Below, one piece after another: positions 3,533-40,618 of a stretch of 64,000 nucleotides of DNA. The notes beneath the pieces are model-generated. The model ran no database searches, was not told the origin of the DNA, and saw nothing but the letters and a program-made list of their open reading frames with translations. Each line of letters begins with the position of its first letter. Position 1 is the first letter of the stretch. This DNA comes from Schmidtea nova. Lineage: Eukaryota. The stretch is taken from NCBI GenBank assembly GCA_044892505.1, contig CM097882.1:93558001-93622000 (forward strand), read 5' to 3'. A program made the position numbers and the translations under genes.

Positions 3533-5363
3533 TTATGGGAATTGCCAAGAAAAAAACAATTTAAAATTAGGTAGTATTGAGTAAGACGAGTCTGTGACCA
3601 TCGTGACAATACGTGTTGGTGAGAGTGATGACGGAGATGCGGTTTGTGGAGGCTGTGGTAGAATGTGTGTGTAGTCTGTGCGGGTTTCGTCGTCGGAAAA
3701 GGTTGGCGGTGCTTCTGGTATTGTTAGTGGTGTTTCTGATGGTGTTGTGAATGTTACTGCTTGTAGTGATGCGGGTGGTGTTCTGTGTGGTGTACCGAGT
3801 AATGTCATTGTTGATGTTGTTGCTAGTGTTGTGCAAGGTGTGCTGGTTGGTTCTTGTTCTGGTGTTGATGCTTGTATTGGTATTGGTGATGGTGTTGTGT
3901 GAGAAAATAGTACTATGGAGATGGGAGCCGTTGTTTCTGAGATGGTGTTTGTTGGCGCAGTTGATCGTATGCGCGTTGGACGTGGTTGGCTGTAAGAAAG
4001 AGAATTCACTGGCGATAAGTCATCGGGGCGTCCATGAATGTCCGATGACTGGGTTAGTTTTTGAAGGATGGGCGTCACGTGTGCGCTAAGTGCATCCTTT
4101 GAGGCACAATCTGGCTTCATTCTTGTAGAGGTGATGGTGAATACACACTGGTATTATTGGATTGTGATGTGTACGGAATTCGGACGTGCAACCGATGCAG
4201 CATTTCTGTGCATGTTGTCTAAATCTGTTATGATAAAAGCAGATTAGTTTGGACGCTGTTATTGGGTTGCCTGTTTTTCGCGCGTGTTGTTGGAAGGTGA
4301 TTGGTATGATGTGCATCATGTGATGGAGAGGTGTTGTTGGGATATCTTTCAACTGTAAGGGGGAAAGGGTGGTGAGGTGTATGCGCTGCGTTAACAGGAG
4401 GGGTAGTGGAGGTTCTGCGTAAATATCTGCGCGGGGTTTATGTTGTTGCAGTGCGTGAATGCAGTCAGCGATCTTCGCGAAGTGATACGGATCTTCAGAG
4501 TCAACCAATGCCAGTGAAGTTTGTAGATGGTAAGGGAGTGCAGAAAGGAATTTGTGGGTCAATAGAGGCGCATTTTTAGAAAGACCAGGATACTGCCGCA
4601 TCGTTTGAACGAACTATCTCTCCCAAAAAAGACTAGGTTGTTGGCCTGAGTAAATCTGTGGCGCCAAGAGTTTTTTAGAACTTGGGTCTGTGAAGAGGTA
4701 TACTTGGATACTATCAGAAATTTCAAATCATCGTACGGGTTATCTGAATAAAGAACATCGGCTATTTTCGGGGCAAACTCGGTTATCAACTGAGAGAGTA
4801 GGCTGTCGAGTAGGTAATCTGCACCTGATTTCGGGAAGGACGACGTACGCGATTCAAAAATGTGGAACCACGACGAGGGTGTACCGTAGGGATCCAAAAA
4901 AACAAAATTGGACGGAAAGCGGATGAAGAAATAGATTCTGTTTGAAGTCGCACGCCTCCAAGAATACGTAAATGGACGTCTACGATCGAGTTTGGTTTGA
5001 TTTCAGAGGTTGTAGCGATGCGAAATCCGTTGGTCGATAAATAAAAGGATGTGTTGTAAATGTGGTGGAACGCAGCTATATATTTGTGTAGATCTGTGGT
5101 GATATTTACTTGAGTTATTTTGTTATTGAAGCGCGTTAAGACATATGTTGGGGAAGAAATGTCGGTGGTGGTGGAAGAATTTCTGCTGTACAAGAAATTT
5201 TGTGTAGGGTTGTGGGCGTGGCTTGTATTGAATGTTGCTTTCGCGCTTTTCCGATTCAGATCTTCGGTATTCAGTTTCTGATGTTTGTTGAAATGTCGTG
5301 CCAGGAGTCTTGGAACTGAACTGACTACGAGAGGAATCGGTATGATCAGGTCTTCTGACACCG
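3533..5363 (-). pseudogene. Gypsy-type gag-like remnant with N-terminal ubiquitin-like domain, tandem C-x2-H-x9-C-x3-C knuckles and a Pro/Thr/Ser-rich tail; no pol
   Basis: Overlapping ORFs 5361-4786, 4897-4559, 4601-4086 and 4120-3533 join to give ...IVDVHLRILGG-...SSWFHIFE...PYDDLKFLIVSKY...KFLSALPYHLQTSL...AKIAD...CFYHNRFRQHAQKCCIGC. tRNA-Leu-like PBS CGGTGTCAGAAG at 5363-5352. Two frameshifts and stops. Confidence 0.7.
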
Positions 5364-12223: not shown

Positions 12224-15064
12224 GTAATGGAAGTTTCACAATTTGTTAAAATGGATAATTTACGTAAAAATGTTAAATTTCCTCCCCAAAAAGATGAAGA
12301 AATTCTTAATAAACTTGTTTGTCGTCTGATAAAAGATAAACATTTAGATTGTGATTTTGGTAAACAACTATATGCGGTTTGGTCCCAACCTGCAAAATTA
12401 TATGGTCTGCCGAAAATTCATAAAAAAGATGTTCCAATGCGCCCGGTTCTTTCTATGGTAGGTTCAGTACAGTATAAGGTTGCAAAGGTTCTTGACTCAT
12501 TGTTAAAACCTTTGATCATTAAAGAGTATGAGTGTCGGGATTCTTTTGAATTTGTTGAGTTTATAACAAAACAGGTTATTGATCCTGCTGATTATATGGT
12601 GTCTTTCGATGTAACTAGTTTATTTACAAATGTTCCATTAAGTGAGATGATTGATCTGTGTTGTGAGTTGTGGAAAGAGAACATGGTTGATGATCAGACA
12701 TTAGATGTAGTTGCTTTTCGTGAATTGTTGATATTTGCAACCTCAAATGTTGCTTTACTTTTTGATGATAATTGGTATCAGCAAGTTGATGGATTGGCAA
12801 TGGGATCACCTTTAGCTCCAACTCTTGCGTCGATTTTTCTTTCAAAATTAGAGAAAAAGATTTCTGATTTTCCTTTTTCTAAGCCTAAGATATATAAACG
12901 TTACGTTGATGATATTTTTTTAGTATTTTCGAATGATGATGATATTGTTCCTTTTTTAAATTATATGAATGGGCTACATTCCAATATTAAGTTCACGGTG
13001 GAAGAAGAAGTTAATGCTTTTCTTCCATTTTTAGATTTGTTAGTGGAACGAACATCTAAGGGTTTTGAAACAGAAGTATATAGAAAGCCAACTGATACAT
13101 GTCTATATACTACTGCTAATAGCTTTTGTGATTTTAAATATAATAAAAATATGATAAAGGGTTTGATTTTTAGATCGTGGTCATTATCTTCTACTTTTGA
13201 AAAATCTAACAAAAGTATACATAAACTTGTTTCTCTTCTGAATAAAAATGGATATTCAAAGGCTTTTGTAGAAAGACTGACTAAGGAAACCATTGATCGG
13301 CTATTGATTGAGCCTGATGAAAGCATTGGAAATGGTAGTCCATCTAATGATAGTGAACATTTAAAAACGCACGTTTTAGTAATTCCATATTCGGAAGGTT
13401 TTAAAAACTTTAAGTGTTCTATAATGAAATCCTTAGGAAATTCTAACATATTTAACATAGTGTCAAAGTCTTTAAAATCAGTAAATATGTTTAGTAATAA
13501 ATCTCAAACCCCAATAGGTTTAGTTTCTGATGAGTGTATAAGTTATCTTGTAATGGGTGCAATGCCACATACATTGGAGAGACTTCCCGTCATCTCAGCA
13601 CACGGGTTCAGGAACATATCCGATTGAAAGGTGTGAGTAATATTATTGAGCATAGAAAAATATGTATAGGAGAAACTGATTTAAAAGATTTTAAAATTAT
13701 ATTAAAAAACTTTAATAATAAATGGGAAAGAATTTTATGTGAGGCGTTGGTGATTAAATCACAATCCCCTACAATTAATATTCAATCAGCAACGAATTTA
13801 TTGAGATTATTTAATTAACTCATTAAATCATAGCCATTACGTCATTACTGTTTCCGTATATAGCATTTGATTTAGATTATGATGGCAGACTGATGATGAG
13901 GACTATGTATTTGAAATATATTTCTATTGTTTGGCNNNNNNNNNNNNNNNNNNNNNNNNNNNNNNNNNNNNNNNNNNNNNNNNNNNNNNNNNNNNNNNNN
14001 NNNNNNNNNNNNNNNNNNNNNNNNNNNNNNNNNNNNNNNNNNNNNNNNNNNNNNNNNNNNNNNNNNNNNNNNNNNNNNNNNNNNNNNNNNNNNNNNNNNN
14101 NNNNNNNNNNNNNNNNNNNNNNNNNNNNNNNNNNNNNNNNNNNNNNNNNNNNNNNNNNTTGTAAAAGTTATGTCTAGTCGTGAATGAAAATCTAATCTTA
14201 CAAAATAGAAGACCCTGGAGGTATACTTACATAATTAATTTTGAAAATAAAATAATGCATTTAATACTTAATAAATTATATTGTAGAGTTTTTTCCACTT
14301 TGACCAATTGCTAACTTATTATTATAGAATTTCTTTATGTGACCACCGGCGCAATAATGAATTCCATCATTCTGACTTAATGTTTATATTTCCCTATTAT
14401 TATAATTTCGTATACCGACATTTACAAGGGCCTTCCCCTTCCATGATCCATGCAAAATTTGGCATAGTTTACAATTTGCCAAACTCTATTAACAAATTGT
14501 ATGAATTATTTTTAAAAATTTGCTTTAATCATAAAGTTCAACTTCCAGTACGAAGGTAATAACTCATATAGGTGCATACAAGTTTAGGTTAAGTTAGGTC
14601 TCTAACTAAAAAAGACTTAATTTTTTCTTTAAACGTTCATATTCTTTTCAACTATAACTATAAGATCCAGAAGACGATCTTGTGTCGCATTTGAACGGAT
14701 TAGATCCTATTGGTTGAAATGTGGAACAAAATAAAAATATATACAAACCAATTTCTAATTTGTACGACACAATAAAATATAATATAATCCCAGGCAATTA
14801 AAAACGTCTTAGTCACATTTGTAAGCAATGCAATTTAAGTTTTAAATTTAAAAAGAGAGAACATTAAAATACAGCTAAAAGTGCCTAAAAGTGTACCTCG
14901 GCTATTAGAGAAGACGTTATTTAACATCCACCGGACGTGAAACGCATAATAATGCTGATCTTACGAGACGCAAGATTTACAAGACAATTACGAATTTTAT
15001 CAGAAAACTATAAACTCGATTCAAATTAAAAAAAAATTTTAAAAAATTTAAATTTTATAATTAA

Positions 15065-16610
15065 CACTTTGTTGACCGGCAATTTTACACAGAAACAATG
15101 CCATGTCACCGGCTACTGTTTTGTAATTGGGAAATATAGTAAATCATTCTAAAATAAATTATATTTATAATGAATGAAATGAAATTAAGCTTTGGACATG
15201 TTTTATTATAACTTTTAAAATTTGTGTGTTAGTATGATAAACTGTATGGTAACCCCTGCATGTAATGGTACGGAACATGTTTTGCAGACATATCTCGCTT
15301 CGCTGATCTTCCTTTTAAAGAGCATACTCCAGACCTTTTAGTTGGATTTATTTTTACGCCAGTGACTATTTTTCTAAAACATGATCCTTTAACTTTCCTG
15401 AAAGCCTGAATGGCGAATCTTTGTAAGGAGTTCTTTTAGAAATATGAGAAGCACTGCCAGGTGGTGTGCTGCATTCATTTGAATCTACAGAAAACAATTC
15501 CCTAGCAACTTCTAGTAGAAATATTTTGTATCTTTGTTTATTTTGGGACATGCTGGAGTAAAGTTTGAATGCGTTAAACAAAGTACAATTGATTGAAAAA
15601 CGCAGTTTTTTTAGACTATTTTATACTTTTTCGAAAGATACTGCTATTCGGCAAGTACTGGTCTGACTATCAACTCCAATCATGTATTTATTGCTTTATT
15701 GTATTATGCCACCCGTAGGATTTCTCTTCCGCTTTGCAGTTGGTATCATAGGTGCATCATGAATAGTTGATATCATGCACACCAACCTTTTATCTTTCCA
15801 TGTGGCAAGAAGAATTGATGATGACCTTGCAAAGGTTATTTGTCCTCTCCTAACACTCTTTGATTTTTCTATTAGTGCCTTTGGCAAGCCACGGTTCTCC
15901 CGTATGTTACCATATACAAGTGTTTTCTTTTCTAATAATATACCAGCTGTAGAAACGCTATTGTAGTAATGGTCTTGATATATATGATGCAAATAACCAA
16001 AATATGGTTCCAAGACTGATATTATAGTTTGTTGTAACTTTTTTCCTTCACATGGATAAATCTCAAAGTTACAAATGTACCCAGATTCACTTTCACAAAG
16101 CATTCTCAGTAAAATCCCATATTTCGTTATCTGTGTCGGATTATATGTTCTGAAACTAATACGGCCTCTCCATGGTATCATTGCTTCTTCAAGTGATAAC
16201 TGCAGTTTCGGTACGTAGAGAGATTGAAATTTTGGAATAAGTTTATTCAATACAGGTCTAATTTCAAAGCCTGTCTCCACTATGGAAAAATGTAAGAATT
16301 TGCTCTAACCTCATCTTGCTCATTGTTTTAGAGAATATTGGTACTTCCGTTGACCTGTAATCTTTCCAATGTGCTTTTTTTATTTGTCCCATCAATATCA
16401 ATAGCCCAAGAAACTTTTTCATATCGCTAGTTGTAACTTCCGTCCATTGTAAAGGTTTAGTAGAGTTTTATGAACTTGTTTCATTTGAAAGTGGCATAAA
16501 TTGGTTTGAGAAACAACTAAATGAAGAAAGTCGTTATCAAAAAATAAATCCGCTACTTCACTGATGTTCGGTGCATCACTAAAATCTGCAGTTACACCCG
16601 GAGTGTTCTA
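15065..16610 (-). mobile_element. 5'-truncated decayed piggyBac (PGBD4-like)
   Basis: TTAA at 15061-15064 is followed by a CAC-starting end. Fragments FLGLLILMG, LSLEEAMIPWRGRISFRTYNP..KYG, YQDHYYNS, WKDKRLV and a C-terminal YVCKTCSVPLH. Many stops and frameshifts. Confidence 0.9.
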
Positions 16611-18440: not shown

Positions 18441-20123
18441 AAAACTCTTTCAAAATTAAACTATATTAAAACATAACTATGCACACATGATATTGAAAAA
18501 ATAAATATTAAATTCTATTTTTATCAATTAAGTAATGTATTAAACAAAAACACAATGGATATTGTTCTTTATTATATTCATTCAATGATTTCACAAATTT
18601 GCTGACAATTTAAGATTCCAACACTTTAATATGAATGCTCAGTTTCGATAATGTCCACGCCAATTATCAATATCTACGAATCCTCGATAGGAAAGAGCGT
18701 AAACTACGAGATCACTTATGCAGTTCCACGTATCAATAAAATCTACCGAATATTTCACAAGAATTAATTAGAATATTTTGATTTTCCAATTGACAAATCA
18801 GAAATCAAAGTCTCCAAGGAACTCTAATTGCTGTAGTTGATATTTCTACGACCTGACGATTCCGTGTCGGATTCTATTCAGATAATTTGGTCGCTGAGAA
18901 AGAGAGTCATTTTTGCTTTTGTACGCTTGAGTACTTTCGGATTTCACCAGTGTTCTAAATTTGAGCTTTTAATAACATTTCGATTTTTATTTATTCTGTT
19001 AAATTAAGTCTAAAGTATTATTAACATCTATTATTTATTATCAAAAATTATCAATTATTTATTATTATATTTATTTACCTATTAATTTTTATTAGTTTTA
19101 TTATTAATATAATANNNNNNNNNNNNNNNNNNNNNNNNNNNNNNNNNNNNNNNNNNNNNNNNNNNNNNNNNNNNNNNNNNNNNNNNNNNNNNNNNNNNNN
19201 NNNNNNNNNNNNNNNNNNNNNNNNNNNNNNNNNNNNNNNNNNNNNNNNNNNNNNNNNNTTTACACGATAGATACGTTCCTAAAAAATGCGTGTATAAAAA
19301 TATATTGGCTGAATGGAAAAATAGTATTGAAAATATATTGAAAAAATATTGAAAATCGTGTTAAAACAAAGCAATTCGTGTAAAAAGAGAGAGAAAAATC
19401 TTTTTAATTCGTGTTAAATCAAATTCAAGTAAAAACAATTCATGTAAAAACAGAATTAGGTGTATTTCAAAGTTAGGTGTATTTTCAAAGAGACTGCCCG
19501 TCATCTCTGCACCCGAGTTCTTGAGCATTGTCGAAAAAATGGACTGACTAATATTAGTGATCATTTTAGGACATGTGTCAGTAAAAAATAGGTATCTCTG
19601 ATTTTAAAATTATTTCAAAAGGTTTAAGTAATTATTAGGAACGAATAACTTGTGAGGCATTGTTGATTAGATATTTAAATCCAAAAATAAATGATCAAGT
19701 TGCCCGTTTCACGTATATTTTGAATGTGTTTAAGTAACTAGATGTAGTATGTTGCGAATTGTGTTTGTGGCATAATTATGTTTGTTTTTGTGAACATTTT
19801 AATTTTTTTTTAAATTTGTAAATTGTATGTTGAATTTTAAAAATTTTTGTAATAAAAATAAAATTTTATTTTTAAAAAAATGTATGTTGAATTATGAAGT
19901 ATGTTATATTTGCTTATTAATTAATTTTTAAAATTTTATGTAATAAAAAATTAAATTTAATTTAAATTTTGATATAGTATGGGGATGATAATTATTAATT
20001 AATTTCTTAAGATATTGCATATTTTCTATTTTATTATTGATTGTCTTGATTGCTGCTTTAAGAAGATTGTTATGCAATCGAAATATATCGCGTTTATGTT
20101 GAATTTACTTAGTTGACGTTTTC

Positions 20124-20156
<33 letters not shown>

Positions 20157-20231
20157 CATAATTATCTTTTTTCACCTTTGATCTTTTTTTATTATTATTA
20201 TCAATAATTCTCATAATGACTATAGATCAAA

Positions 20232-20347
20232 AATTTTTTTTTTATAAACAATAACACAATATTTCGGCACAGCCTTTATCAAGTGTGTATACACACTTGA
20301 TAAAGGCTGTGCCGAAATATTGTGTTATTGTTTATAAAAAAAAAATT
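20232..20347. repeat. Perfect 116-bp palindrome made of two divergent Penelope-type hammerhead units; third copy at 20500-20572
   Basis: 58-bp arms, no spacer, centre 20289/20290 (GTGTA|TACAC). Each arm contains ACAC-TTGATAA-A-GGC-TGT-GCC-GAAA-TATT-GTGT. Confidence 0.9.
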
Positions 20348-22412
20348 NNNNNNNNNNNNNNNNNNNNNNNNNNNNNNNNNNNNNNNNNNNNNNNNNNNNN
20401 NNNNNNNNNNNNNNNNNNNNNNNNNNNNNNNNNNNNNNNNNNNNNNNNNNNNNNNNNNNNNNNNNNNNNNNNNNNNNNNNNNNNNNNNNNNNNNNNNNNA
20501 CTATAGATCAAAATTTTTTTTTATAAACAATAACACAATATTTCGGCACAGCCTTTATCAAGTGTGTATACAAAAGATCAAAGGTNNNNNNNNNNNNNNN
20601 NNNNNNNNNNNNNNNNNNNNNNNNNNNNNNNNNNNNNNNNNNNNNNNNNNNNNNNNNNNNNNNNNNNNNNNNNNNNNNNNNNNNNNNNNNNNNNNNNNNN
20701 NNNNNNNNNNNNNNNNNNNNNNNNNNNNNNNNNNNNNNNNNNNNNNNNNNNNNNNNNNNNNNNNNNNNNNNNNNNNNNATAGAGGTCTATAATCTCAATC
20801 TCAACCCTTACACATTCTATTTTTATGTATTTTATTTTGTAGAAAATGGGAATACTTTTTTTATATCTTTTAATGCGTTAGAAATAATTAATTTAAACGA
20901 AATTTCACTTAAACTAGAAAAGCCGGTATATTAAATACCTTTATATTTTAAACGGATTTTCTGACATATTTTCCGAATTTCGTAAAATTAAAAAAATGCT
21001 GGGATTTCTGTCCGGTTTAATGACGAAATCCACTATATCGAGGTTTTACTGGGTAAAATTTGTGGCATAAAATATATTAAGATAATTTTTTGGGTTCATG
21101 AATAAAAATATTCCTCTAATGATTATTATTTCCAAAAAGTCTCGTACACCAAAAATACTGGAAATTCCTACGACGTAATCATTGGAGTTGAAAATGGGAA
21201 TAAATTAGAGAATTAAAAGAAAAAAATTTAATGTTTGATTATACCCCTGAGATTTCCCCTTAAAACGAGAGATTTGCGTTGACAAAAGACTGTGGATTTT
21301 GTATTGAAAAATGAAGATTATTTTAATTATATTGTGATTAATTCAATTCGGGTTTTTTTTCGTAATTAAATTGCAATTATTTTACTTACTTTGTTGTTCA
21401 CATCGAAAACAATAGATTTTCTTCGTTCTGTGTAGCGTTTCAAGAAACCAGGAGAAAAAAAATCATGAAAACAACTAAATTCGAACAAAAAAAAATCTTT
21501 TGATGAAAGAAATTTTTTTTTCTTCTGATTAATCATTTTTTAATTGTCCCATTAGAGGTTGGTATGTCTAATTGTCGCAGTTTAGCATCGGATATTGTCT
21601 ATTTCCATAGGTGATTTGGAGAATTTTTGCGTTGGTTTTTTTTTTGTTAATTGTCGGTTTACAATTTTGCGGCGAAAAATAAAATTAATTGTTGAATTAT
21701 TCTTTAAATAATGAGAAAATATCGAGATGATATTAAAAATTATAAATCGTGGCGGCTGGGATTTAATCCCAGTCTGAATCATGTACTCGGTTTTCTGTTT
21801 GATTGTCGGGTTGAAAAGAAAATAATTGGAATATAAATGAGGATTTAAATAATATTAATGAGATAAAAATGTAATTTTTCTATTGTTTGTTTAACGTTTT
21901 ATCCCAATGTCACCTGATAAAGCAGTGGTTCATAATATCTAGTGCACGCACCCCAAATTGGTGTGATCGGACATGGTAAAGGGTTCAAGAAAGAGAACTT
22001 GACTGTTTTCCTCTAATATAGTATAATATTGTAAATTTAAGTTTTTATATTTAATAATTATCCTCTTCTCTGTCGAACAGCTACATATTACAAAGGTATG
22101 GATAAAAAATCACTTACTCCAGAAGGAAAAATAGGGATGATAATGACCATTTCAATCGAGATTTTTAATTAATATTGTAATAAAATTTATAATTTTGATT
22201 TCTAAGTTTTTTATATAAGGTGTTTAATAAACCTCATTTTATTATCAAAGGGATTAGAGTAACTTTAGTGGTTAGGAATCACTGTAAATAAATGGCGCAT
22301 GAAGGCTGATGTTGCATAACGGATCTTTGATATCAAAAGTCAAAATGATATTTTAAAAATAACATCAATCTTTGCCCTTAGACATTTTTATAAGAATTCG
22401 GATGTAATAGAC

Positions 22413-22723
22413 CAGTGGTTCTCAAAGTTTTACCAGTCAAAACCAACTATTAAAACGGTTAAGTTTTCGAGACTGACCTGCAAAAAAACAAGCAAAAACT
22501 AAAACTTTAATTTAAATATTTATAAAAAACACATAGTTAAGAATAGTTAAGAGGGTTATATAAGATGAATGAGTTTTGCTTTTTATTTATTTTTATTTAT
22601 TTTTATTTATTTTTATTTATTTTTATTTTTTTATCTACTTTTGTATTGTAGCAAATTTATTAAAAACAATTTTATTTGCACACAATTAATACGAAATAAA
22701 TATTAAAATTTTGGGAACCACTG
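22413..22723. mobile_element. hAT MITE (311 bp)
   Basis: TIRs CAGTGGTTCTCAAA / CAGTGGTTCCCAAA. Perfect 8-bp TSD TAATAGAC at 22405-22412 and 22724-22731. Confidence 0.92.
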
Positions 22724-24790
22724 TAATAGACTATGACGTTAATAACAGATTGCTGGACGCAATGTTAACGGTTACCATAGTGATGCTGGGTTGACTCTCT
22801 CTCNNNNNNNNNNNNNNNNNNNNNNNNNNNNNNNNNNNNNNNNNNNNNNNNNNNNNNNNNNNNNNNNNNNNNNNNNNNNNNNNNNNNNNNNNNNNNNNNN
22901 NNNNNNNNNNNNNNNNNNNNNNNNNNNNNNNNNNNNNNNNNNNNNNNNNNNNNNNNNNNNNNNNNNNNNNNNNNNNNNNNNNNNNNNNNNNNNNNNTAGC
23001 TATTTTTGTGTCGAAGGTGAACAAAGTTGAAGAAGTGAACTTGCAAGCATAGTACTATTGCATCTATAGTTTTGGAGGGTCTAAATTCGCTAGTTATATT
23101 TATATGAGTGTATTATTTTATTCATAAAACATTGTATTAAAAAAAAAGATGTTATTCATAAAAATTTGACAATTGTTACAGATTTTAAAGGAGTGGGAGA
23201 AAATCGCAAAGAAAAAATGATTCTATTAATCCGGATAAATTGCGGAGAGCTGAAATTAAAATTATGTGTTAAAAGAAATTAAGCAAAAAAAAATTTTCCC
23301 AAAACAATTTCCCCATTTATTTATTAAACAATTCCCATACAATCAATAAACTGATTCTATAATAAACAAAGAATTTAATTTCCAATTAAACTGTGGATTA
23401 AAACAATAATTAAAATAATAGCCATGCATTAGTAATTTTGTTATTTTTTCCCCATTTTAATAACCCCTAGTAATTGAAAACCATTAAAATTCAATATGAA
23501 AAAAAATAAATTGAAAACAATTCAAGGTAATTATAACAAATTTTAAGAGTCAACTCTTGAATATTTTTTTTTATTTTGTAGTCACTTCAAAAAATTGTCA
23601 ATATCAACAACAATCATAAATAGTTTTGTATATTTAGGTAAAGTGCGTATTTTAACCATTTATTAATTAGTTTGAAAGTCGTCTAATAAAAATTGTAAAT
23701 CATTCATTAAAACAAAACAAGTTAACTTAATTTTTATAATAATGTTTTATTGAAAAAAAGTTATTTCTAAAATAAAAATAGACAACTTATTTAAACAAAA
23801 AATCACTTAAAATATTAAGGTGATCGATGTTAAAGAAATTCTGTCTTGAAATAATTATTAGATTTTTTGTTGTTCATCAACATCAGTAAAAAAAATATTA
23901 AATGACTCCCGTTAAAGGAAATGTAGCTCAAATTTTTTTAATAAATATTATTGGTTGATTAAATTAATTAATTTTATTTATTTATCAATTAATTTTTGGC
24001 GATTAAAACAACGACAACCAAGCGTTGCTGAAGGATAGTGAGTGGGTGGTATTCACGATGGGGAGGTGAGTAATTAATTAATCAAGTAATAAATTAATTT
24101 AACAATCTTATTGATAACAACCATTAATTATCATATTGACAAGTAGGTAAATGATAGAAAGCGAATTTATAATCAAATGTTTGGAATTTTTAATTATTTA
24201 AAGAATTTTTAGTGAAGGATCCGAAATTTGAGATAAGACGATAAATCATCGCCTTGAAGGTTCTGGTCGCTTCGTGTATCTTGTCTAGGTTCTAACTCCA
24301 CTCTTTACTTTGCATTCCACGCACATGACTGTTCAATCCCTCGCGCATGTGTCCACGATCATTCTCGACAATCGCATTCGGTAATGTACATCGCGGCTTT
24401 CGAGTGCTAGTAAGCAGGTGAGCCACCACTGCTTGCTACTATTCTCCTCTATACGGGTTCATTCTTGGGCGATAGAAGCCCTATCCACTTCCTAAACGCT
24501 CTCATCAATCTTCTTTTTCAGCGTTTTCGTCTGTTCTATACCTCTCAGTTTACTCATTTTACTCCACCATTCATCAACCTCACATTCTACTACAAACATT
24601 CTATTACATTACTAACACAAAAATGAAATAAATACGCTGAAGACATTTATTCAACACCAATACATTTATACAAATGACACTATTTGGCATAGTAGGTCCA
24701 ATTCCTCTAGACTATCTAGATAATTGATTTGATCCGACAATTGTGTATGGAAATCCGCCTTTTGACTTTTCTCACGTACATCGACAAGGT

Positions 24791-25012
24791 ATGATGACTT
24801 TGGATATTCGACTATTGGGAAAAGAACCTATGACGAGATCATAACGTTGCTTCAGCAAAGTGAAAACTTTGAGAAAAGATTTAATAGATACTGGACAAAC
24901 TACCAGTATATTTTTTATCATGATTCATGGAGGGCAAGTATATGACGATGAATATTTAGTAGATGTGGGGTGCCTACCATTTGAAATAACAACTGTAGTC
25001 ATTATACTTGTA
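24791..25012 (+). pseudogene. Ubiquitin-like (beta-grasp) domain, one in-frame stop
   Basis: MMTLDIRLLGKEPMTRS*RCFSKVKTLRKDLIDTGQTTSIFFIMIHGGQVYDDEYLVDVGCLPFEITTVVIILV (74 codons) aligns by eye with the ubiquitin pattern. It has no terminal GG. Confidence 0.5.
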
Positions 25013-25593
25013 GAACCACCTGAATCTCAGTGGTCATCATTACGGTTACCAGATGAAATCGTCACCGATTATGTGGAGACACAACCATTTCGCGTATAAA
25101 TCGATGTCAAAGATCACAGAGAAGAAGATATCAGCCTCAATAATAAAGAATCTAACGTGGGAGCTTCAACTTCTCAGGCGGTAAAAACTCATCACGCAAG
25201 TTGGACAGACAAAGAAAGAAAGACGAGAAAAGCCTAGGAAAGACCAAATGAAAACTCCACCAATATAGCAATTAAACCAGGAAACTATTTAACAGGTTCA
25301 GATGAAAACCCTATCAGGAATAGCCAGAGATATCGACATAAGAGACAAAGGTGTACACATCCTAGAAAAATCTCTGACGTGGAAGAGATTAAAGTAGATC
25401 ATCGGAATATTAAAGCAAGAATGGAAGATTAATCAGATTAAAGGAATCCAAGTGGATAAAATGACACAGTTAATGGTGAAGACGATGAAGAGAATACCAA
25501 AAGGAGTACCTTAAAATGAGATACAGAGTATGATAGAAACATTAATACAAGATGAATTATCGAAAGGAAAAATATTGACAGCATTATCTATGT

Positions 25594-25796
25594 CAGCAGT
25601 TCCCAACCAAGGGGTCGCGACCCCAACGGGGGTCGCGTTACAGTTTGCCAGGGGTCGCCAAAACATAATTATCATAATATTTGGCTGCAAAAATGTTGTA
25701 ACTGAAGTGCAACCCTATTGATTTTATTGTTTGGGTCGCCACAAATTGGCAAATGTTATCATGGGGTCACAGCACCAGAAAGGTTGGGAACCGCTG
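25594..25796. mobile_element. hAT MITE (203 bp) inserted in the retroelement
   Basis: TIRs CAGC(A/G)GTTCCCAACC. Perfect 8-bp TSD ATCTATGT at 25586-25593 and 25797-25804. GGGGTCGC subterminal repeats. Confidence 0.93.
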
Positions 25797-25994
25797 ATCT
25801 ATGTTGTTTCAAGATGCATTAGCCCACGCAGGCAATGAAAAGAAACTTATAAATCGAGAAATAGACGAGATAATGGAGATAACGGAGATAACGGAGCATT
25901 ATCTCGGAACGTGGATGAACTAAAATAACTTTTGGGAAGAGGACAAACTTAACTCTCAAAAACCACGATATGAATTTATTGAAGATGAATAACA

Positions 25995-26781
25995 ATGAAT
26001 AACAACAACCCTGAAAACGGAGAAATGGGGAATATGAAAAATATGATGTTAATGTTTTTAGTAATGATCAGGATAATGGAACAGACAAATACAATGACAA
26101 CGTTTGATTGTAGTGATCAAAGGTTGGCTCAAATATATTCGTCCGTGAATGCAATTGAGTGCAAAGAGGCATATCCAGAGAAGGTCCAAACAGGAGAAGA
26201 GGTCGAATATTATGTTTATTAAGAGAGTGAATTCTTCAGAACCAAGATAAGAGAATGTAGAGTTCAAAGAGCGACATTTGAATATTATTACAGTTCACAC
26301 ATCGGCAACTTTGAAACCCATACCAGTCAACATAATGCCAGAAGACTGTTTGGATGCCTTTCGAAAAGGATCTTTAAAAATTGATAACAAGTTAACCATT
26401 GCCGTGGAAGTAGGCAAATCACTGGGTGTAACCATTAAGCGGGGAGGATCAATCTGATCAGATGGGGCATGTTCGGGAAGAAAGAAAACTCGCGGACCAG
26501 ATCTACTAAGTAATTTTTTAGATATCAATAAATATTCAATTGAATTTAGAGAATATTAAAGGACTTTCGTTGTAATATCAGGAAGATTAATAGCACATCC
26601 TCAGTGCCTTGCAAAATTTGGAAGCTGCTTGACAGTGGTCATTACATTATTATACGATCAAATAAGAGATCATTACGAATTGTCGTTACTAAAGGAAATT
26701 AGATTTCATAAGTTGAATGGGACAAAGTATCGAGACGCACCCAAAAGAGAAAGAATTTTGGATAAAAAAAAATACGTTTAA
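25995..26781 (+). pseudogene. Chuvirus-type glycoprotein (env-like), N-terminal part
   Basis: Signal-like hydrophobic stretch, then FDCS...ECKE...ECRVQRATFEYY...EDCLDAFRKG...GGSI*SDGACSG...QCLAKFGSC. Cys spacing is as in chuvirus G. Three stops and one frameshift. Confidence 0.65.
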
Positions 26782-26961
26782 AAGGATCAAAAAACAGTAA
26801 AAAGAGGGTATTAGTGAGGAAAACACAACTCTATTATAAGTATCAGAGGATAAAAAAGATGCTATCAGATTTGTATTTATATATATTTTAAAATCTATAA
26901 TCTTGTTGAGCTACGAGTAGCATTAATTTATAGCATAATTAGATCCCGTAAACTGAGATTT

Positions 26962-27816
26962 ATGCATTTCTTTTTAGCTAATATTGGCATATCAGTATAT
27001 CTGATAAAAACGTTAAGGTTTTTCTTTTTAGATATGAAGCATCCACTATCGCAATACAGGCAACAACACAGCACTATGGAAGTGCAGACCATACAAAAAG
27101 AGAAACTTATTTATTGCAATATCAAGAAAGCGATCTCTACAGAAACATGGAAAGGTCGTCGTTATTGGTACTACTGGCACTGCAGAGGCATCCCAAACAA
27201 TTTCAAGTTTCTTGGATCTCCCAAGAGACAAATGTGCATTGTCGCAATTACCAGCCGTGAGAACATCCTATTGACAGAACACATGCAGGAGTTCAATCGA
27301 TCGACATTTGTTCATCATCTTTGGATACATGTGATTAATAAACCCTTTACAATTTTCGTTGTAGGAGCCACAGGACCCATCCTACTTCAGCCAGAGTCTA
27401 CACTTGAAATTAGTAATGGAGATGGTAGAGAAAAGAACATCTCGATACAATGCAAAGGCTACAACATCATTGTAGTGTTAGAAATTTTTGAACCCAGCAA
27501 GGCTGCGCTAACACTATGGAAAAATGAACCTGTCTGGACATATAACGTGAATGAGAACGGCCTCAAATCGTTTAAGTCCATTGTCCGTATGAATTTACAC
27601 TCAAATCAAGAAGATAGATTATCCATATTCATGGCAGCTCATTACGCTACCTTACGAGATTGTATAAAACCAGCTTTAGTGGCTGTTTCTATCGCCAACT
27701 ACGGTGGTGATTTAATACTAAACACAGTGGTTACCCCTAGAAATCATGTCAAACATTACCAATCTCACGCTCATAGTATGACCGAAAGGAGATTATTGGA
27801 CAGTACGACAGAGTAG
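26962..27816 (+). CDS. Orphan 284-aa ORF, accessory position upstream of the PPT
   Basis: Uninterrupted 855-nt ORF with mixed amino-acid composition. No family recognised. Confidence 0.45.
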   Translation: MHFFLANIGISVYLIKTLRFFFLDMKHPLSQYRQQHSTMEVQTIQKEKLIYCNIKKAISTETWKGRRYWYYWHCRGIPNNFKFLGSPKRQMCIVAITSRENILLTEHMQEFNRSTFVHHLWIHVINKPFTIFVVGATGPILLQPESTLEISNGDGREKNISIQCKGYNIIVVLEIFEPSKAALTLWKNEPVWTYNVNENGLKSFKSIVRMNLHSNQEDRLSIFMAAHYATLRDCIKPALVAVSIANYGGDLILNTVVTPRNHVKHYQSHAHSMTERRLLDSTTE

Positions 27817-30210
27817 ATTGTGCTGACCGCATTAGAAAAATATGTGATGGAAAAATTCTAATCGGCTTGCAGGTAAACGAATTCTTGGAGGCAGTCCAGT
27901 TACCCACTCAGCCAGTTTTGGCCATTCGGAAATTAGGAGCAGCGAAATGCCTGGAATTGTCATGTATTGTCATTTTATTTTTATTGCTGCTAAATCTTCT
28001 TATCTTTTCCTCTTTAATTTTCGGGACGAAAATCTTGTTAGGGGAAGACATGTTAGGGTTTAAGATCGAATTTCTGTAGATTTATAATTAAAAATAGAAT
28101 ATAGAATTAATTAAATACTATAAATAGGATAAGGAGGTAATTAAATATATAAATAGTAATATTAAAATAATAATGTATTTTTCTGATTATTGCGTGGCTG
28201 CGTATTTGAGGTTGATTAACGTTGTTTTGCGAGGCGGTGTTGGCCGTTATTTCCGAGTTCGTACTTCACAAATAAGAACAACTATGTAACTGATTGCAAA
28301 ATCAGTCGAGAGTAACAAAAATTTTAAAAGTTAAAATTGATGAAATAAAATTGTTGAGTGGTAATATTTGCATAGAAAGTTTCGGAAGTAATTCAATTAT
28401 CAAGAAAAATATTGTTGTTGGAATTCAAATCAGTTGAGGATCTTAGTTTTAGATCGAAGTTTTAGAAGGGAAATATTTTAAGATAAGGTATCAGCCAATT
28501 TTTGGGTTGAAACCATCGCGGAAAATTTCGGGAAACCCACCATCTTATTACCAACCTTTTAGTCGGAGCTGTTGAGCCTTTAGGTCCAGCTTTCGCTGCT
28601 TAATTTTTTGAGAATGGTTTGAATAACCGATTTCTAATTTAGGTAAATCTTGTACAGCAACCGTGGTATTTTGAACATAATTTAAATTGTAAATTGTAAT
28701 ATAAATTGTAATATAAATAAATTTATTTCTAGAAACACTTGTTCTTCTTTACACGCAAAACATATATTTTATTTATAAAGGGATTATCGTTTGGAGTCCG
28801 ATAATCGATTAAATTATTATTGTTAAATTATTATTGTGTTCATTCGTAACCACTGATACGAACCGAGCAAATTGATTATTTTCCTTCCTCTATTTTATTA
28901 TTATACTTATTATTTTTTATTTATTTCACAATTTATTTTTCTATATTCATTTCTATTTTTGTTTTGATTTTTTTTCTTATATCTTTTTCTTTGATACTTT
29001 TTACTAATTATTCTATCTTTCTTTTCCTATTTGTTTCTGCTATCAGCCCAACAAAGGAAATAGTTTGACAAAAATTGCTTAAATAAAGAAAGGCAAGTTA
29101 ACAACAAATTGGCAATCGGAAGGCTTCCGAAATATATTCCTTTATGCAGTTTTCGTTTGACTTCAAATTCAACTTTGACCCATCCATAAGAATTCTTCTT
29201 TATCGATAGTGACCCTTGTTGAAAATACACTATTTAAGTGAAAATAATAAAAATGATTCTAGATTAATAGGGGATGTTGAAGGATTTTGTCAAATCAGAA
29301 CACCAATGACTCAGTAAAGCTCAAGCAATAATATTAATTAATTAAGAACATAATAATTAATAATTGTCAAGAAAACACTCCCTCTGTCTATGGTAAATAA
29401 CGAAACCCTTTCATTTGCATCATTCACGCAGAACGTTTTCTCTCTCTCTCTCCGAATGACGTATCGTATATGGGATTTGTTTGATCAAATGCAAATATCT
29501 CTGATATTTACTCTTTGATCATAGCCAGTAATCTACTTATACCTTTTGTTTTAAATCAAACGAAAAACTTTTTCTTTTCCATCACAATGACCTCACCATT
29601 CTTTTCATTATTTTATAATTAAATAAAGCGAAAAAATGAATAATCTTTTTAAATTTTTAAATTTTATCCTTTCATCCAAAATAAAAAATCATGTGATTTT
29701 GAATCTTGATTTGCAAGAATGGGTCTATTTTAAAAAGAAAGTTAAAATAAAAACAAAATTCGTCACAGAGAAAATCTGGTTTAAGATTATTAGTGTTAGC
29801 AACTTGGTCTTATCTTTCACATTTTAACACATTTTCATAGCAATCGCATGGCTGATAATAGCGGTAATGGTGGCAAAGATTGAATATCTAACGATAAGTG
29901 CCATATAAAGACCACGTATACTAAATTCTAGGCTTTCACTTGAGCTTAGTATTAAATCACTTTAATAACTTAGTTGACCAACATTGTCTGCATAATAAAT
30001 ATAGTCGGTCGGATATATGTGACTTACCTAAGCGACTTACCTATGTGACTTACGACTGATCGACTTTACGATAATAAAATCTGCATTATTATTTGAATTT
30101 TTTAAACCTGTGTTTTATTCTTCTGTAGTGCCATATATCACAGCCATGTATATATTGTAAAATCAAATGTCTGACTTAAATCTTTTAAAACAATAAACCC
30201 AAAATTATAT

Positions 30211-30458: not shown

Positions 30459-31759
30459 CCTTTTGATAGATTAAAGAAATTATATTAACCTTCAATTTGT
30501 GCATAGTAAATTTTCCATGGTCTGTGCAAAGGGGTCAATCTTGCTCCGTATATATTTTCATATATTTTGTAAGAATTTATAATATTTTTTCGATATCCGT
30601 TTTAGTAATGCGTGTATAATACCATAGTTGACGCAATTCTACTTGCCTGGCATATTTATTTAGTGTATAACTTATTGAGTCACATATTACAATGACTAGG
30701 GTGCAGGGGACCCCAAATGCACAAACTGAAGGTTTAATACAATACTGTTTAAAAACTAAAAGTCATACAAATTAATTAGCAAGTATTTATGCAAATATTT
30801 ATGCAATGTATTAAAGTAATTGTAAGGTGTTTTCAGCTGAGAATTAAATATTTTGTTAAAATAGTTTAAGATAAATTGAAATTGTAAAAATTATATTGTT
30901 AAAATCCTAAATAAGTTTTTATATTAAGTAATTGTAAAATATTAAAATTTAAGAGTTTTTTAAAATTTAAATATGTAATTTTATAATGGAAAGTAGTAAA
31001 TTTAAAAATATATATTTATAATTTTAAATGGAGAATTAAATGGAAATTAATAATTACTAAATTCTTTTGAAAATTTAATTTGAAAAAATATATGTTTCAC
31101 CGCAAAAGTTAAAAAAATTGTATAAAAATTCAATAATATTGTGATAATAATAAATTTTTGGAATAATAATTTTTTGAATTATGACATCCAATGAATCGAA
31201 TCTAGAAGATCTTATAGTAACATCGATTTAGTAACGGTAATATAAAATAAGGGTTGTTTGTTTGGGATTGCCAAACAAGATACAATATCCCAGTTAATAA
31301 ATATTTCACGCGACCTAGAATGACTGAGGTAACTATCATCTTTGTTTCTGCACGTTTAGTGAATTTTGTACGAATTTGACTGGTTTGTGGCGGTAATTTT
31401 CCATTAGGAACTTGAGTAATCATATTGGCGTTGTTTCTATTCATAATTTTCTTTGCAAATACAATTTCGAAAATGATTAAATCCAATTTAAAAACAATTT
31501 AAAATCAATTTATTTTCTTTCTATAAATTCATTTCTAAATAAACTACAAATTTAGACAAACATTAATTAAAGTTTTTTTTTATAATAAGTATTTTCCTTT
31601 TTATATTTCTTTTTTTGTTGTTTGTTTTTTAATTAAATTGATTTTTTTATTCTAATTTAGATTATTGTTGTTTCTTAGGAAATTAGCTCAAAATTTAAAG
31701 TCATTTCCTAAGTTAATAAAACACATGAAAGTCAGGCGGTGCAAACTGATCAAATCCTC

Positions 31760-34700
31760 AAGATTCCATCCTCCTTGACTCCGTCAACATTCGTACGTTT
31801 TTCTTCGAGTGGAAATATTTTCGAAATTGGTCTGCAATTTTCCTTTCCATTCACTTGAATTTTTACTCCTTGAACTTTACCATCCTGTTCACAGATAATT
31901 TCATTTACTCGAGCTAGTGGTCATTTTCCATAATAATCAGTTTTTTCTAGCAACCTAACCAGATCTTCAACGTTAAGGTCATCTTATTCTTTCCCCCATT
32001 TTTTCTAGCTCTCCGATTCGGAACGAGTTCTTTCTTCCAACTTTCCCAAAAATGTTCAGCTATTTCAAAAAATCTTTTCCACTTTTTTATACCAAAAACG
32101 ATTTATTGGATTCAATGTTTCGTCGCTATTCATTCCTGTACAATTTACTAACAAAATATTATTTGGTGTCAAAATCATATATGAACATTGAATTGTCAAT
32201 GGACGGGCATTCAAAATACTTTCTATTTTTATGAGGACACTATTAAGCTCTTCATCTGAAAGATCAGCATTTCCAACTATAACTAGTAGAGCTTTCTTTG
32301 CCGATTTTATTAAAGACTCAAATATTCCTTCAAAGTGGGTCGCAGATGGCGGATTGAAAATCCACCTTCTTTGATTTTCTACCATGAGCTTATTCATTTT
32401 GTAGGTATGCAATTCAATTTCTTGAAGCTCATTTGCATCACCTACGAATTTAGTACCATTATCTGAAAGTATCATTAATGGTTTTCCTCGCCTTTCCATG
32501 AAACGAATGACGGCTCGGATGAATGCGTCCGTATCTAAACCATAAGCTACTTCTAAGTGTAAACAAGCACAGTTGTCCTTTTGCTTTGACTTTCCTCTTC
32601 CCTGAACCATTTCAAACGGTCCAGCAAAATCAACAGCTATTCTAGCAAATGCTTGCAAAGATTTTTGAAATATGAATGATGGCTACGGAGTCATAATTTG
32701 ATCCATCCCCTTCGCCTTTCGACTTCTAGATTCAAAACATCCCTTAAAGCATTATTTTATTAGTTGACTGGCACAAACAACCCAATATTCTTGATTCAGG
32801 TTACTCAATGTGTGGTTTACACGAGCATAATGATTTCTTTTCTGGTGCAGATACTTTATTATCAACTTTGCAGTCCAACTCTATTTACTTAATAAAATTG
32901 GATACTTTGTCTTCTCATCTAAAGATTCAGCGTTCACAATTCTGCTATTGCTCCCTACAATTCCATCATTATCAATAATCGAACTCAACTCGACAAATTT
33001 ACTTTTTCATCAATTTGTCTTTCTTCATTCAATTTATTTACTTCCTGCGCCATATATTTTGATTGATCAATTCTAATAATCCTTCTTTCCACTTCTTCAA
33101 TTTCTTCTGATATTAATTCTCTTAAATTTCTATTTTCTTTTAATTTCGATTTACAATTCTCTGAAAATCTTAGCACCCATGCATAAACTCTTATTAATCT
33201 CATCCAATCTGAATTGGTTTCAGGTGTTAAACAATCAACGTGTAATCTCAAAGTTTGTGCTTTTAGCACACTTTCGCTCGTCATCATCACAGCATTTCTC
33301 TCTTCTTTACTTTCTACCATAATGCCTTTAAGCTCAGTTTTTGGCCATTCTTCTTCTTTTGAAATTAGGAATCTTGGTCCACATATCCATTCTCTTCTTT
33401 CTTGCAACTCTTACTGTTACTCCCCTCGATATCATAGCTGCAAGATTTTCTTTAGTCGGTACGTATCTCCACTGGATAGCTAAAGTTTCCTCATGAATGA
33501 TACCAACTATATTTGCTACAAATCGTTTGAAAATTCTCGCTCGTTGTTTTATCCAATACAAGACATTTTGAATATCCGTCCAAAATGTAACCTTGATATT
33601 ATAGCCAATAGGTTTCACTGTCTTCTTTGCGAACTTTAAACCTAGACAAGCTCCTAGTAATTCTAATCTTGGTATATTTATGGTTTTTACATGAAATACT
33701 TTTGATTTCGTTGCCATGAACTTGACTTCAACATTTTCTTTATTTTGTTCTCTTAGATATGCTACTGCTCCGTATGCCTTTTCAGAAGTATCGGAGAATA
33801 AACGAATATTCCACTTATTATAGGAGCAACTAATCAGACATCTTGGTATTTTCAATTCATTTAAGTGTTCTGCTTCTTTGAACCAAATTCTAACATTCAG
33901 TTCAATTTTTGGTTGCAATGAATCATCCCAATCTATTCCGCACCTTAAAAATTCTTGCATGCAAATCTTTCCTCTGATTACAAATGCACTTAAAAAACCT
34001 AATGGGTCAAATATTCTTGCTATCCAACTTAATAGTGATATTTTCGTTAAAGTTTCAAATTTAAAGGTCTTTACTGAGAATTCAAAATTATCTAGATTAG
34101 CTATACACTTTAGACCTAAAGTTTTCATAGTTATACTTCCATCTTCTTCGATTTCTAATTTGATTGTTCTACTTTCTTTCGGAACGTTCTCCAATACCCT
34201 AGTTGAGTTCGACATCCATTTGTGTGTTTTCATTCCCGCACTACTCCAAATAATTTATAATTGCTCCTTTAATAAGAAAGCTTCTTCTTCTGTATCAACT
34301 GAATCCAAACTGACGTCCATATAAGTTGATTTTACGACAGTTTCAGCTGCTCTTGGATAATTTTGCTCTAATTTCTTTGCATTTTCTTGCGATACAAATC
34401 GAGCAAGATATGGTGATGTGTTTAGACCAAACACTAATCGATTTAACTCATCTGTTTTTATTTCATTACCTTTTGCCCATAAAAACCTTAAATAATTTTT
34501 GTCTTTTTCAATTATTTCTATTTGTAAAAACATTTCTACAATCTCACAAACTATGGCGACTTTATTTTTTCTAAATCGAACTAAAATATCGAACAATTGA
34601 TTTTGTAATTTAGGGCCAACCTCGATATTGTCGTTCAAACATCTCCCATCAACTCTCGACGCTGCGCCAAAAACTACTCTTATTTTGGTAGTCTCCCTTT

Positions 34701-36110
34701 TCCTCTTTATTACAGGGAAATGAGGTAACAAACATCCCTTTACTTTTTCTTCATCTTTACTAATCTCTCTGATATACCCTTTTCTTTCATGTTCATCAAT
34801 TAATTTTGTATACTCTCTCTTCAATATCATCTTTTTTCGTCTTGAAGAAACGTCATCGGTTCTTCCCCCTACAACCTTGATAGGAATTCTAACTTCATCA
34901 CCTCTAAGATCTTACTCGACCGCCACATGTTCGCTTATAAAACTAGTTGTGCTTGCGTCATCATGTAAAGCATTAACAATTGTATATTATTGTTTTTTAA
35001 AATTACTGGGACGGTACGAAGACTGACCCATCTTCTTCCTGTTGATAATTTTTCTTGGTCGATTCCCATCATGACATTTTCTTCAAACGTATTTTGTTAA
35101 AGAGGGCGGTGTTACCAATAATTGTGCTTGCCTTCACAGTTCTCAAGTCTAAACATTTTTCCCTTGAACATTCATTTACTAAATGAACTATCCCGAAGCA
35201 ATTTAAACAGAGTTTGTATTCCTTGAATTTTCTAAATCTATCTCCTACATTCATCTTTCAGAATACAGGACATTGATTTAGGAAATGCCTCTCTTTGCAC
35301 AACTGACATTTTTGATATTTTAATTCATCTTCACCTACTTTTGGATCTTGGACTTAAAAAAATTACGTTGGTAGGTATATTTTTCAATTTTGTTTGAACT
35401 ATTTTTTTTCAATCCCTTCTTTTTCACTGGTTGGTTCAAAGTGGCGTGAGACATAACAGGTTGATTCCGATATTCTTTATAGTTGGTTAGTTTCTTGTCT
35501 TGATTTGTTTTACCTAATTCCATTGTTCCTTTTATCTCAATTATCTGCTTTGTTCGATGTAACTTCTCTCGTTACAAACTATGTAAGATTTTAATTGGTT
35601 TATTTGAATCACCTTTCTTACCACTGAAAGTTAACAACCATTCATCCAGTACAGATGGGGTCACTTTTTACAACAATTTTTCAAATATAAAACTTGCTCC
35701 TAGTTCGTTTTCTCTTCCCATGTCTTCTAATCGTATAATGAGCTTTCCGATGAGACTAGCGAGATTCACAAGATCTCTTATTTGCGCTTCTCTAATCAGT
35801 CGAAATGTTTCTAATTCATGTAAGAAGTTTCTATATAATCTTTCTTCTCCACCGTAATTTAATTCTAGCCTATTTAATGCCGCATATTCTAAGTTCTCAA
35901 TCAATTTCAGTGGTTCTCCAATAAGATGTTGCAACTTGTCTTCTTTTTGAACCAAGTGCTTTATCTATTCGAAAGTCAAAACAAGCTTTCCAAGAATCCG
36001 TTGAAGGATCAGTTCCTCTTGAACATTTTTAGATTTTTTATAATTTTTAATAGTTTTGGTATTTTTAAATTTGATATCCTGGGTTCCATAGCAGGATATC
36101 AAAATAATTT
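31760..36110 (-). pseudogene. BEL/Pao gag-pol remnant (DUF1759-like gag, Zn knuckles, protease, RT, RNase H, integrase, DUF5641-like tail)
   Basis: CLNCFGIVH, ALHDDASTTSFIS, LPHFPVIK..TTKIRVVFGA, LVFGLNTSPYLA, STYMDV, FSDTSEKAYGAVAY, IPRLELLG, FWTD, AVDFAGPF, ILSDNGTKF, LNARPL and RPISKIFPLE in order. Many lesions. Confidence 0.95.
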
Positions 36111-36119
36111 TACCATTTT

Positions 36120-36950
36120 ATTTATTCATTATGACGGATTTGATCAGTTTGCATCCCCCAGATCCCCACATGATAATAATAAATAACAACAACAAATTTA
36201 ATCTGGTTATTTTTGTCGATCCATCCTGTGATCTCGGTGAACCCATCAGAAGTTTGGATTGGCTAAGAAAAGTTACAGAACTTTGCAATTTCGATATACC
36301 AAAGGCTAACCAACTTCGGTTGTTATCATAGATTGCCAAAACAAGCCGTTGAAGACTACCACCGGTTTGTGACAGCAATTTCTCACAAAAATAGGAATAA
36401 CACGAATCCGTAATGAAAATTGTATCGACATCCGAAATGATATTCTTTCACGATTCCAATGATGACGATTTCTCAACTTGGATAATAAATCAGATTCACT
36501 CACAATTTTGCCATCGACTTTCTGGAGAATTTCATTGAATTTCGTATAGAATTCCAATCCATTGATTGGTTGAGTGGCAATTGACACGAAATGACTGATT
36601 CGATGAGCAGCATTATGAAATCGATCTGACATTATCTCCTTCATCAATCCAACAATTGTCGAGGGGTTTCCATTTATTCTTGACATGAGATTCTGCAACG
36701 CAGTTGCTGGACCGACTTCCAGATTGAGATTGCGAAACAGTTTACAGAGATCGGAAATTGTCTGATCGAGTGATCGATTGACATGAGAGCATTTGAAAAA
36801 GTGTGGATAAATATTCAATTCCTCACGAGTGTTGAAAAATGTAACAAGATAGGAATAGATGCTAGAGCCCCAACTCGATGTGGAACTATTCTGAATCGGT
36901 TCTGATTTTGGGATAATTTTGTAAGAGGCTTTTGATTTGGTTTGTTGATT
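36120..36950 (-). pseudogene. Second, non-BEL gag-like helical ORF directly after the iMet PBS
   Basis: ORF 36818-36306 includes RISHFVSIATQPINGLEFYTKFNEILQKV, which resembles a retrotransposon capsid. It continues into 36378-36118 by frameshift. Confidence 0.4.
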
Positions 36951-39900: not shown

Positions 39901-40406
39901 TTTTTCTATAACTTTGGCCGCATAAATTTTTCCTCCTAACATTTCATTTAAGGATTTTAATTTAATCTTTCTTTCTAGCTTAACTGCTTGCAATGTCTTA
40001 ACTTCTCTTGACGCAGGTTTTCTGACTAAGAGAGAAATTCATTGGTTTGTGTATCTTCCATAACGGTGACATGCCTGGATAACATACTGACTTCTGAGGT
40101 GTTGCATCTTCCTTTAATAATTAATGAGTAACTGGAATCATAAAACGAATTCAGTCTTAATATACCGCCGGAAATTCTAATGTGCAACTGTTGTATTAAG
40201 CTACTTCTACTTCCCTGGTGTGCATTTGTAACTATAAATCGCTTCACTCATAATTCAGCCAAATGTGCAATCGTCCGTTAACTTTGGCATCATTAATTCT
40301 GGATTTGATACCGAAATCGTTAAGTGATTTCGATTTATTTCCCCTTGTTTCACTGTTAATCGACAATCAACCTCTTGATACACATTTTGCATTTGTTTCT
40401 GTAGAT

Positions 40407-40618
40407 CATGAATAGCCAATCCGCGGCCGCGGCACTCTTATATTTATAACCATACAAATATATTTTGTGGTTCGTTCATTGCATGTTTTCTTTTTAAATG
40501 TAGTTTTCCCCTCAGAAAAAATGACAGAAAAAATGACAGAAAAAATGATAGGGAAAAATTTTTCTAATTATCCTTATTTATTTGTGGCCCTTGGTGTAAT
40601 TTGAGTTGGCCAGCTCTG
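40407..40618. mobile_element. hAT MITE (212 bp), degenerate left TIR
   Basis: 8-bp TSD CTGTAGAT at 40399-40406 and 40619-40626. Right TIR CAGAGCTGGCCAA, left CATGAATAGCCAA. Confidence 0.7.

Follow-up and report, generated by a model that had tools for sequence, protein, structure and literature searches.

A 64,000-nt stretch of the Schmidtea nova genome (contig CM097882.1, positions 93,558,001 to 93,622,000; hereafter the window) contains near position 24791 a short frame resembling a ubiquitin-like domain (UBL), which a preliminary description had placed at the start of a gag-like open reading frame (ORF) of a long terminal repeat (LTR) element. The locus raises the question of what this domain belongs to and what it may do there. 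We consider it fairly probable that it is the second of two predicted UBLs (UBL2) in an accessory cassette that a Burro-like Gypsy errantivirus carries between Gag and Env. There it likely stays uncleaved and binds proteins, joined to a predicted Bcl-2-like domain that would guard the host cell against apoptosis.

The window copy is a decayed fragment

The region 24700-25590 was searched against the genome of origin (1.25 Gb, three large contigs), and 39 other matches with 84-86% identity were recovered (40 of 154 candidates scored). None of them extended upstream of 24772, which marks the locus as a fragment of a repeat family. The decayed piece from 24772 to 28869 (the window copy) and the repeat abutting it comprise the following features:

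24260..24774, strand unassigned: dispersed repeat unrelated to the element, abutting its truncated end and holding the 'PBS-like' word
24772..24793, plus strand: 5' truncation point, where the family match starts, and final codons of the helical bundle lying before UBL2
24794..25015, plus strand: UBL2, second ubiquitin-like domain of the family polyprotein (residues ~777-850), here a pseudogene and without a terminal GG
25016..25367, plus strand: acidic linker, predicted disordered; the AT-hook-like RGRP motif of the family is degenerate and frameshifted here
25368..25960, plus strand: predicted Bcl-2-like domain (the helical region previously called gag-like), with stops and split by the insertion in the next line
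25594..25796, strand unassigned: 203-bp miniature inverted-repeat transposable element that has terminal inverted repeats and is flanked by an 8-bp target duplication, a later insertion judged from the sequence and from family copies that lack it; we take it to be of hAT type from the length of the duplication
26040..26078, plus strand: predicted internal signal-anchor, a hydrophobic segment that follows the Bcl-2-like domain and precedes Env
26097..26874, plus strand: 5' part of a chuvirus/HSV-gB-type env (PF24664, Monjiviricetes_fusion), with stops and frameshifts
26866..27956, plus strand: what is left of ORF2 (codons 8-370 of 716), brought next to env by a ~6.2 kb deletion
28021..28869, plus strand: polypurine tract region and 3' LTR (28051-28869)

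The frame at 24791 reads as the preliminary description gave it, but it is interrupted by a stop at 24842, and more stops and frameshifts follow downstream; the peptide read with X at the stops matched no Pfam family. The methionine noted before the UBL is internal to the protein and lies beside the point where the copy is truncated. At 26866-26874, the ~6.2 kb deletion has taken out pol entirely along with the end of env, and ORF2 has been shortened by another deletion. For env, the PF24664 match has an E-value of 0.029 in the window, as against 5.8e-23 and 3.9e-56 in one family copy. Comparison of positions 20001-24300 with the family gave no match. The window copy is thus dead, a decayed fragment of an abundant envelope-carrying retrotransposon family. 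A second, more decayed env fragment of like kind, with 35-56% identity to the family described below (family A), was observed at 39505-41123 on the minus strand.

Structure of the family

Ten regions around family copies were fetched for structural analysis, most of which showed LTRs of ~1 kb (pairs 98.9-100% identical, with TG...CA ends) and one long frame. In the least interrupted copy of family A, ORF1 is one frame spanning 3,449 codons, and the ORF2 downstream of it has 716. Full elements measured 14,591-15,111 bp, with 4-bp target site duplications (TSDs) in six of seven copies, the seventh being unreadable to its end. The primer-binding site (PBS) is complementary to tRNA-Trp(CCA) of the same genome. 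Pfam domains in ORF1 appeared in the order Retrotrans_gag (a weak match, E 0.11), zf-CCHC, Monjiviricetes fusion glycoprotein, aspartic protease (PR), reverse transcriptase (RT), RNase H (RH) and integrase (IN). LTR ends, PBS, polypurine tract, 4-bp TSD and PR-RT-RH-IN order are those of Ty3/Gypsy elements, upholding the attribution to an LTR element, and the location of PF24664 between zf-CCHC and protease in two families is that of GAG-ENV-POL errantiviruses with an HSV/gB-type envelope. No Pfam family was detected in ORF2, nor was a dUTPase match in the PR-RT gap.

Around 80 protein matches were at least 95% identical over the whole family A query (147 of 1,705 candidates scored). The second family (family B; 48% identity, 3,549 codons) had an identical domain order and ~80 near-identical copies among 150 scored. 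With ~80 near-identical scored copies in each of these two subfamilies, the family is recently active; further decayed subfamilies were found at 48-65% identity. A genome search with a distant relative (P0010) yielded essentially the known subfamilies and no frame longer than ~3,550 codons, hence no giant Burro copy among the candidates scored (150 of 1,371).

Several additional observations were made on these copies. In copy L040, ORF2 occupies L040:6003-8150, and family B carries a ~700-codon ORF at the matching place. Past the integrase (L040:5085-5999), ORF1 encodes ~250 residues flanked by two hydrophobic segments; this part has no Pfam match and may be an additional membrane protein joined to Pol. 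Both family B copies examined had 100% identical LTRs and were inserted in long (AAT)n runs, which suggests a target preference. The tRNA 3' end complementary to the family PBS occurred 1,984 times in the genome, always on the plus strand; the first 100 listed matches fell in a ~282-bp tandem array at C3:128.02-128.07 Mb, and ARAGORN detected seven tRNA-Trp(CCA) genes within 3 kb of one region (L122). This tRNA-Trp array is unusually large, and the expanding element family draws its primer from it.

UBL2 lies between Gag and Env

UBL2 is located downstream of Gag and upstream of Env. In all of the stored loci (n = 19/19) the frame runs at least 189 codons upstream of UBL2; a CCHC knuckle was present upstream in 15 of the 19, and 15 of the 19 reached Env in frame. 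The preliminary description had proposed a second LTR element with the UBL at the start of Gag, as part of a recurrent UBL-gag strategy. Seen in the window alone, a methionine before the UBL and a TGG word ~95 nt upstream do point that way, and a different element in the window, at 4954-5148, does carry a probable UBL with GG at its end before Gag. The family copies, in contrast, show Gag and CCHC upstream of UBL2 and a Bcl-2-like domain with Env downstream, the latter being an outcome that the preliminary description itself had named as contrary to its reading, and their true PBS lies ~2.3 kb upstream of UBL2. An N-terminal UBL-gag arrangement at this locus is therefore extremely improbable.

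The supposed PBS belongs to the unrelated repeat at 24260..24774, whose copies showed 69-86% identity (40 of 126 candidates scored). The word was complete in none of six other copies, and TGG alone was kept in two of the six. No family ORFs were found next to nine fetched copies of the repeat. A solo LTR or a coding remnant was considered for this repeat and rejected, since other copies continue past the junction and no notable Pfam match was obtained.

The comparator element was characterized through the following feature:

4954..5148, minus strand: probable UBL with a terminal GG, located 5' of a DUF7041 Gag in a different element

In one copy (L103:1444-3057) this UBL is joined to the DUF7041 Gag by a single frame of 538 codons, and its outside relatives P0021 and P0022 keep the GG. 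Its only PDB match was SDE2 (E 0.59). The element, represented in the window by 4954-5148 and 3536-5002, is high-copy, with 90-94% identity (40 of 2,401 candidates scored). Judged from sequence, it is probably a true UBL-gag case. Comparison of the two domains confirmed that UBL2 is unrelated to it. Because UBL2 does not precede Gag, the 64 kb do not hold two independent UBL-gag architectures as had been inferred; only the element at 4954-5148 qualifies.

Fold, duplication and conservation of the ubiquitin-like domains

Structure prediction on a natural copy gave UBL2 the beta-beta-alpha-beta-beta-(alpha)-beta topology of the beta-grasp fold, superposing on ubiquitin-family structures at 1.5-2.5 A root-mean-square deviation (rmsd). 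The ubiquitin-like assignment was thus supported by the predicted fold, whereas the proposed Pfam check against ubiquitin/Rad60-SLD placed none of 16 UBL2 members above the curated cut-off (P0013 and P0016 reached 17 bits, with a cut-off of 25.4). For the upstream domain, UBL1, three of ten sequences matched in the ubiquitin-type search, also under the curated cut-off (best E 0.06). The first UBL2 profile matched only FUN30 among PDB sequences; of two word-based searches one returned nothing and the other only P0014 and P0016, both already aligned. The ESM Atlas returned four named sets for UBL2, all ubiquitin/Rad60-SLD (scores 0.87-0.88), which we treat as a lead only.

The profile of unit 2 (helical bundle plus UBL2) also matched an upstream unit in five of the seven family-type proteins long enough to hold one, and UBL1 and UBL2 aligned with each other (hhalign, 66%, E 5.6e-5), revealing a tandem duplication. 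P0013 and P0014 carried a single helical bundle plus UBL unit, while two were found elsewhere. This variable copy number, together with the lack of catalytic and conjugation motifs, would fit UBLs that are captured spacers or folding aids, now functionless. However, UBL2 is under strong purifying selection: dN was 0.15-0.40 against a dS of 1.3-2.1 or saturated in all six pairs of four subfamily representatives, and UBL2 had the lowest dN of six segments in four of the six pairs. Moreover, an acidic DDDEYL-type motif is retained in relatives with ~25% identity. A functionless spacer thus appears quite improbable.

A C-terminal diglycine was absent from all 38 sequences checked (0/16 UBL2 rows, 0/10 UBL1 rows and 0/12 outside relatives), in agreement with the earlier notion of an integral, type II-like UBL. 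This result bears on another possibility, namely that the UBL is a processing signal at which host deubiquitinases cut Gag from the Bcl-2/Env part, by analogy with the ubiquitin insertions of cytopathic pestiviruses. The precedent is real (PMC8310069), and the UBL does sit at a domain boundary of an unusually long polyprotein. Nevertheless, no GG follows either UBL, the element has its own aspartic protease, and the UBL is predicted to be packed against the helical bundle. As UBL2 lacks GG, its cleavage by a deubiquitinase is unlikely, and such a processing role would be very improbable.

The helical bundle and linker

In the predicted structure (pTM 0.84), the helical bundle packs rigidly against its UBL to form one unit. 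A linker follows, with pLDDT <50 over most of its length and an AT-hook-like RGRP motif in five of the six proteins checked. Bundle, UBL and AT-hook could together form a released nuclear module of the LEDGF/TFIIS-N-terminal domain (TND) type, which would tether the integration complex or recruit elongation factors to the element. The rigid packing, the RGRP motif and the (AAT)n insertions of family B agree with this proposal, as do a helix pattern that looks TND-like by eye and a match of the unit-2 profile to LEDGF chain 5oym (profile positions 8-75, E 0.68). That E-value, however, is at chance level, and myoglobin and cyclin C scored equally well or better; a bundle-centred profile matched NUP160 only and no TND domain; the fold matches listed were filled by UBLs, with no TND chain among them; and the ESM Atlas matches of the bundle were unnamed clusters. 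We regard a nuclear role of this kind as unlikely. A broader version, in which the repeated bundle plus UBL unit is an undescribed module whose UBL is rigidly fused to a preceding TND-like domain and has an AT-hook behind it, serving as the element's own LEDGF-like chromatin or elongation-factor adaptor beside a Bcl-2 domain whose tail anchor doubles as Env signal peptide, seems decidedly doubtful.

The Bcl-2-like domain and a proposed mechanism

Under the favored reading, a Gag-Env accessory cassette with uncleaved protein-binding UBLs, the neighboring domain would protect the host cell from apoptosis. Its predicted fold is helical with BH1/BH2 motifs, as in the Bcl-2 family. The hydrophobic segment that follows is the only 13-residue span with a mean hydropathy of at least 2.0 in residues 1-1449 of the family A protein.

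The following sequence of events is proposed. Gag and the cassette would be synthesized in the cytosol, and the hydrophobic segment after the Bcl-2-like domain would thread Env into the endoplasmic reticulum, staying behind as a Bcl-2 tail anchor after cleavage by signal peptidase. The C-terminal membrane segment of Env would bring Pol back to the cytosol, and the aspartic protease of the element would release the cassette from Gag. The helical bundle plus UBL units may then interact with factors of the host ubiquitin system (UBA or proteasome receptors, or p97 adaptors), which would set the level or location of the anti-apoptotic cassette. The binding partner of the UBL is the weakest step of this mechanism. 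On the predicted models, the UBL/Bcl-2 cassette likely helps host cells to survive.

Other elements in the window

Several unrelated features were also observed:

7573-13935: inverted arms of ~770 bp (99%) around a hAT transposase frame (9123-11636, minus strand, 837 codons) and an RT frame (12083-13627, plus strand, 514 codons)
15696-16304, minus strand: DDE_Tnp_1_7 transposase fragment
31172-37692, minus strand: decayed BEL/Pao element with Peptidase_A17, RT and rve, flanked by direct repeats that lie 5.8-6.4 kb apart
52650-53995, minus strand: host-like frame of low complexity that gives a short match to Auts2 (E 1.5e-5)
58695-59935: near-perfect inverted repeat of ~1.2 kb

Comparison with known systems

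The integral type II or tandem UBLs of ubiquilin/Dsk2, Rad23, ISG15, FAT10, OASL and Atg5 resemble the family UBLs in tandem layout and in the beta-grasp fold, within the rmsd range given above, but the family UBLs have 7-21% identity to them, lack GG, are interleaved with helical bundles and belong to a retroelement polyprotein. For the Bcl-2-like domain, the nearest kin, judged on the models, would be a viral Bcl-2 (canarypox CNP058) and animal Bcl-2/Bcl-xL; here the domain is part of a polyprotein and, unlike in those proteins, its tail is predicted to double as Env signal.

Among retroelements, PMC10084718 describes Anakin as an LTR element with a chuvirus-type glycoprotein; Anakin is BEL/Pao, whereas the present family is Gypsy-type (PR-RT-RH-IN), with env upstream of pol and a UBL/Bcl-2 cassette. 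Troyka was rejected as a match on the CG termini and 3-bp TSDs given in PMC12440569. GAG-ENV-POL errantiviruses with HSV/gB-type Env are catalogued in Platyhelminthes in PMC13524379, where Smed_errantivirus_4 has the gene order of the present family; 34 of the first 50 residues of the Env stretch given for it in the supplement agree with family A in a by-eye count, which makes a planarian host probable. No tRNA type is listed for it in the table of that paper, whereas the family has a tRNA-Trp PBS, and the word 'ubiquitin' does not occur in the main text, so the cassette is undescribed there.

Of the papers recovered in literature searches on UBLs in LTR elements, PMC6431247 alone was relevant. 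The tandem helical bundle plus UBL unit did not turn up in these searches, although Grohme 2018, Jurka 2007, Sacco 2022, their supplements or Repbase may describe it. PMC6431247 reports Burro/GYPSM1, a giant planarian Gypsy element (>30 kb, 4,873 aa), whose Gag has CCHC knuckles, whose Ubi2/SUMO-like domain lies between MATH and BCL-2, and whose mononegavirus-like env is in frame between BCL2 and PR, giving the order Gag-CCHC-Ubi/SUMO-like-BCL2-env-PR. Both encode, in one polyprotein, a UBL, then a BCL-2-like domain, then env in frame before pol. In contrast with Burro, the family is 14.6-15.1 kb with ~3,450 aa, has no MATH, BIR, ankyrin or SMC Pfam match at E up to 1-10 in ORF1 and ORF2, has two UBLs, each behind a helical bundle, where PMC6431247 names one, and carries a downstream ORF2 of ~700 codons.

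The family is therefore a Burro-like GAG-ENV-POL errantivirus but not Burro, as set apart by the published description of the latter. The architecture itself is already published for Burro, and the value of the present family lies in its being half the size of Burro and recently active. Of the Burro accessory load it retains the UBL and Bcl-2 part alone, pointing to UBL plus Bcl-2 as the conserved core. The finding also corrects an annotation error that is easily made, in that an internal UBL looks N-terminal in a truncated copy. PMC6431247 left open the suggestion that Burro-type elements meddle with host apoptosis and ubiquitination, and the small, well-folded predicted domains of this family make that suggestion testable.
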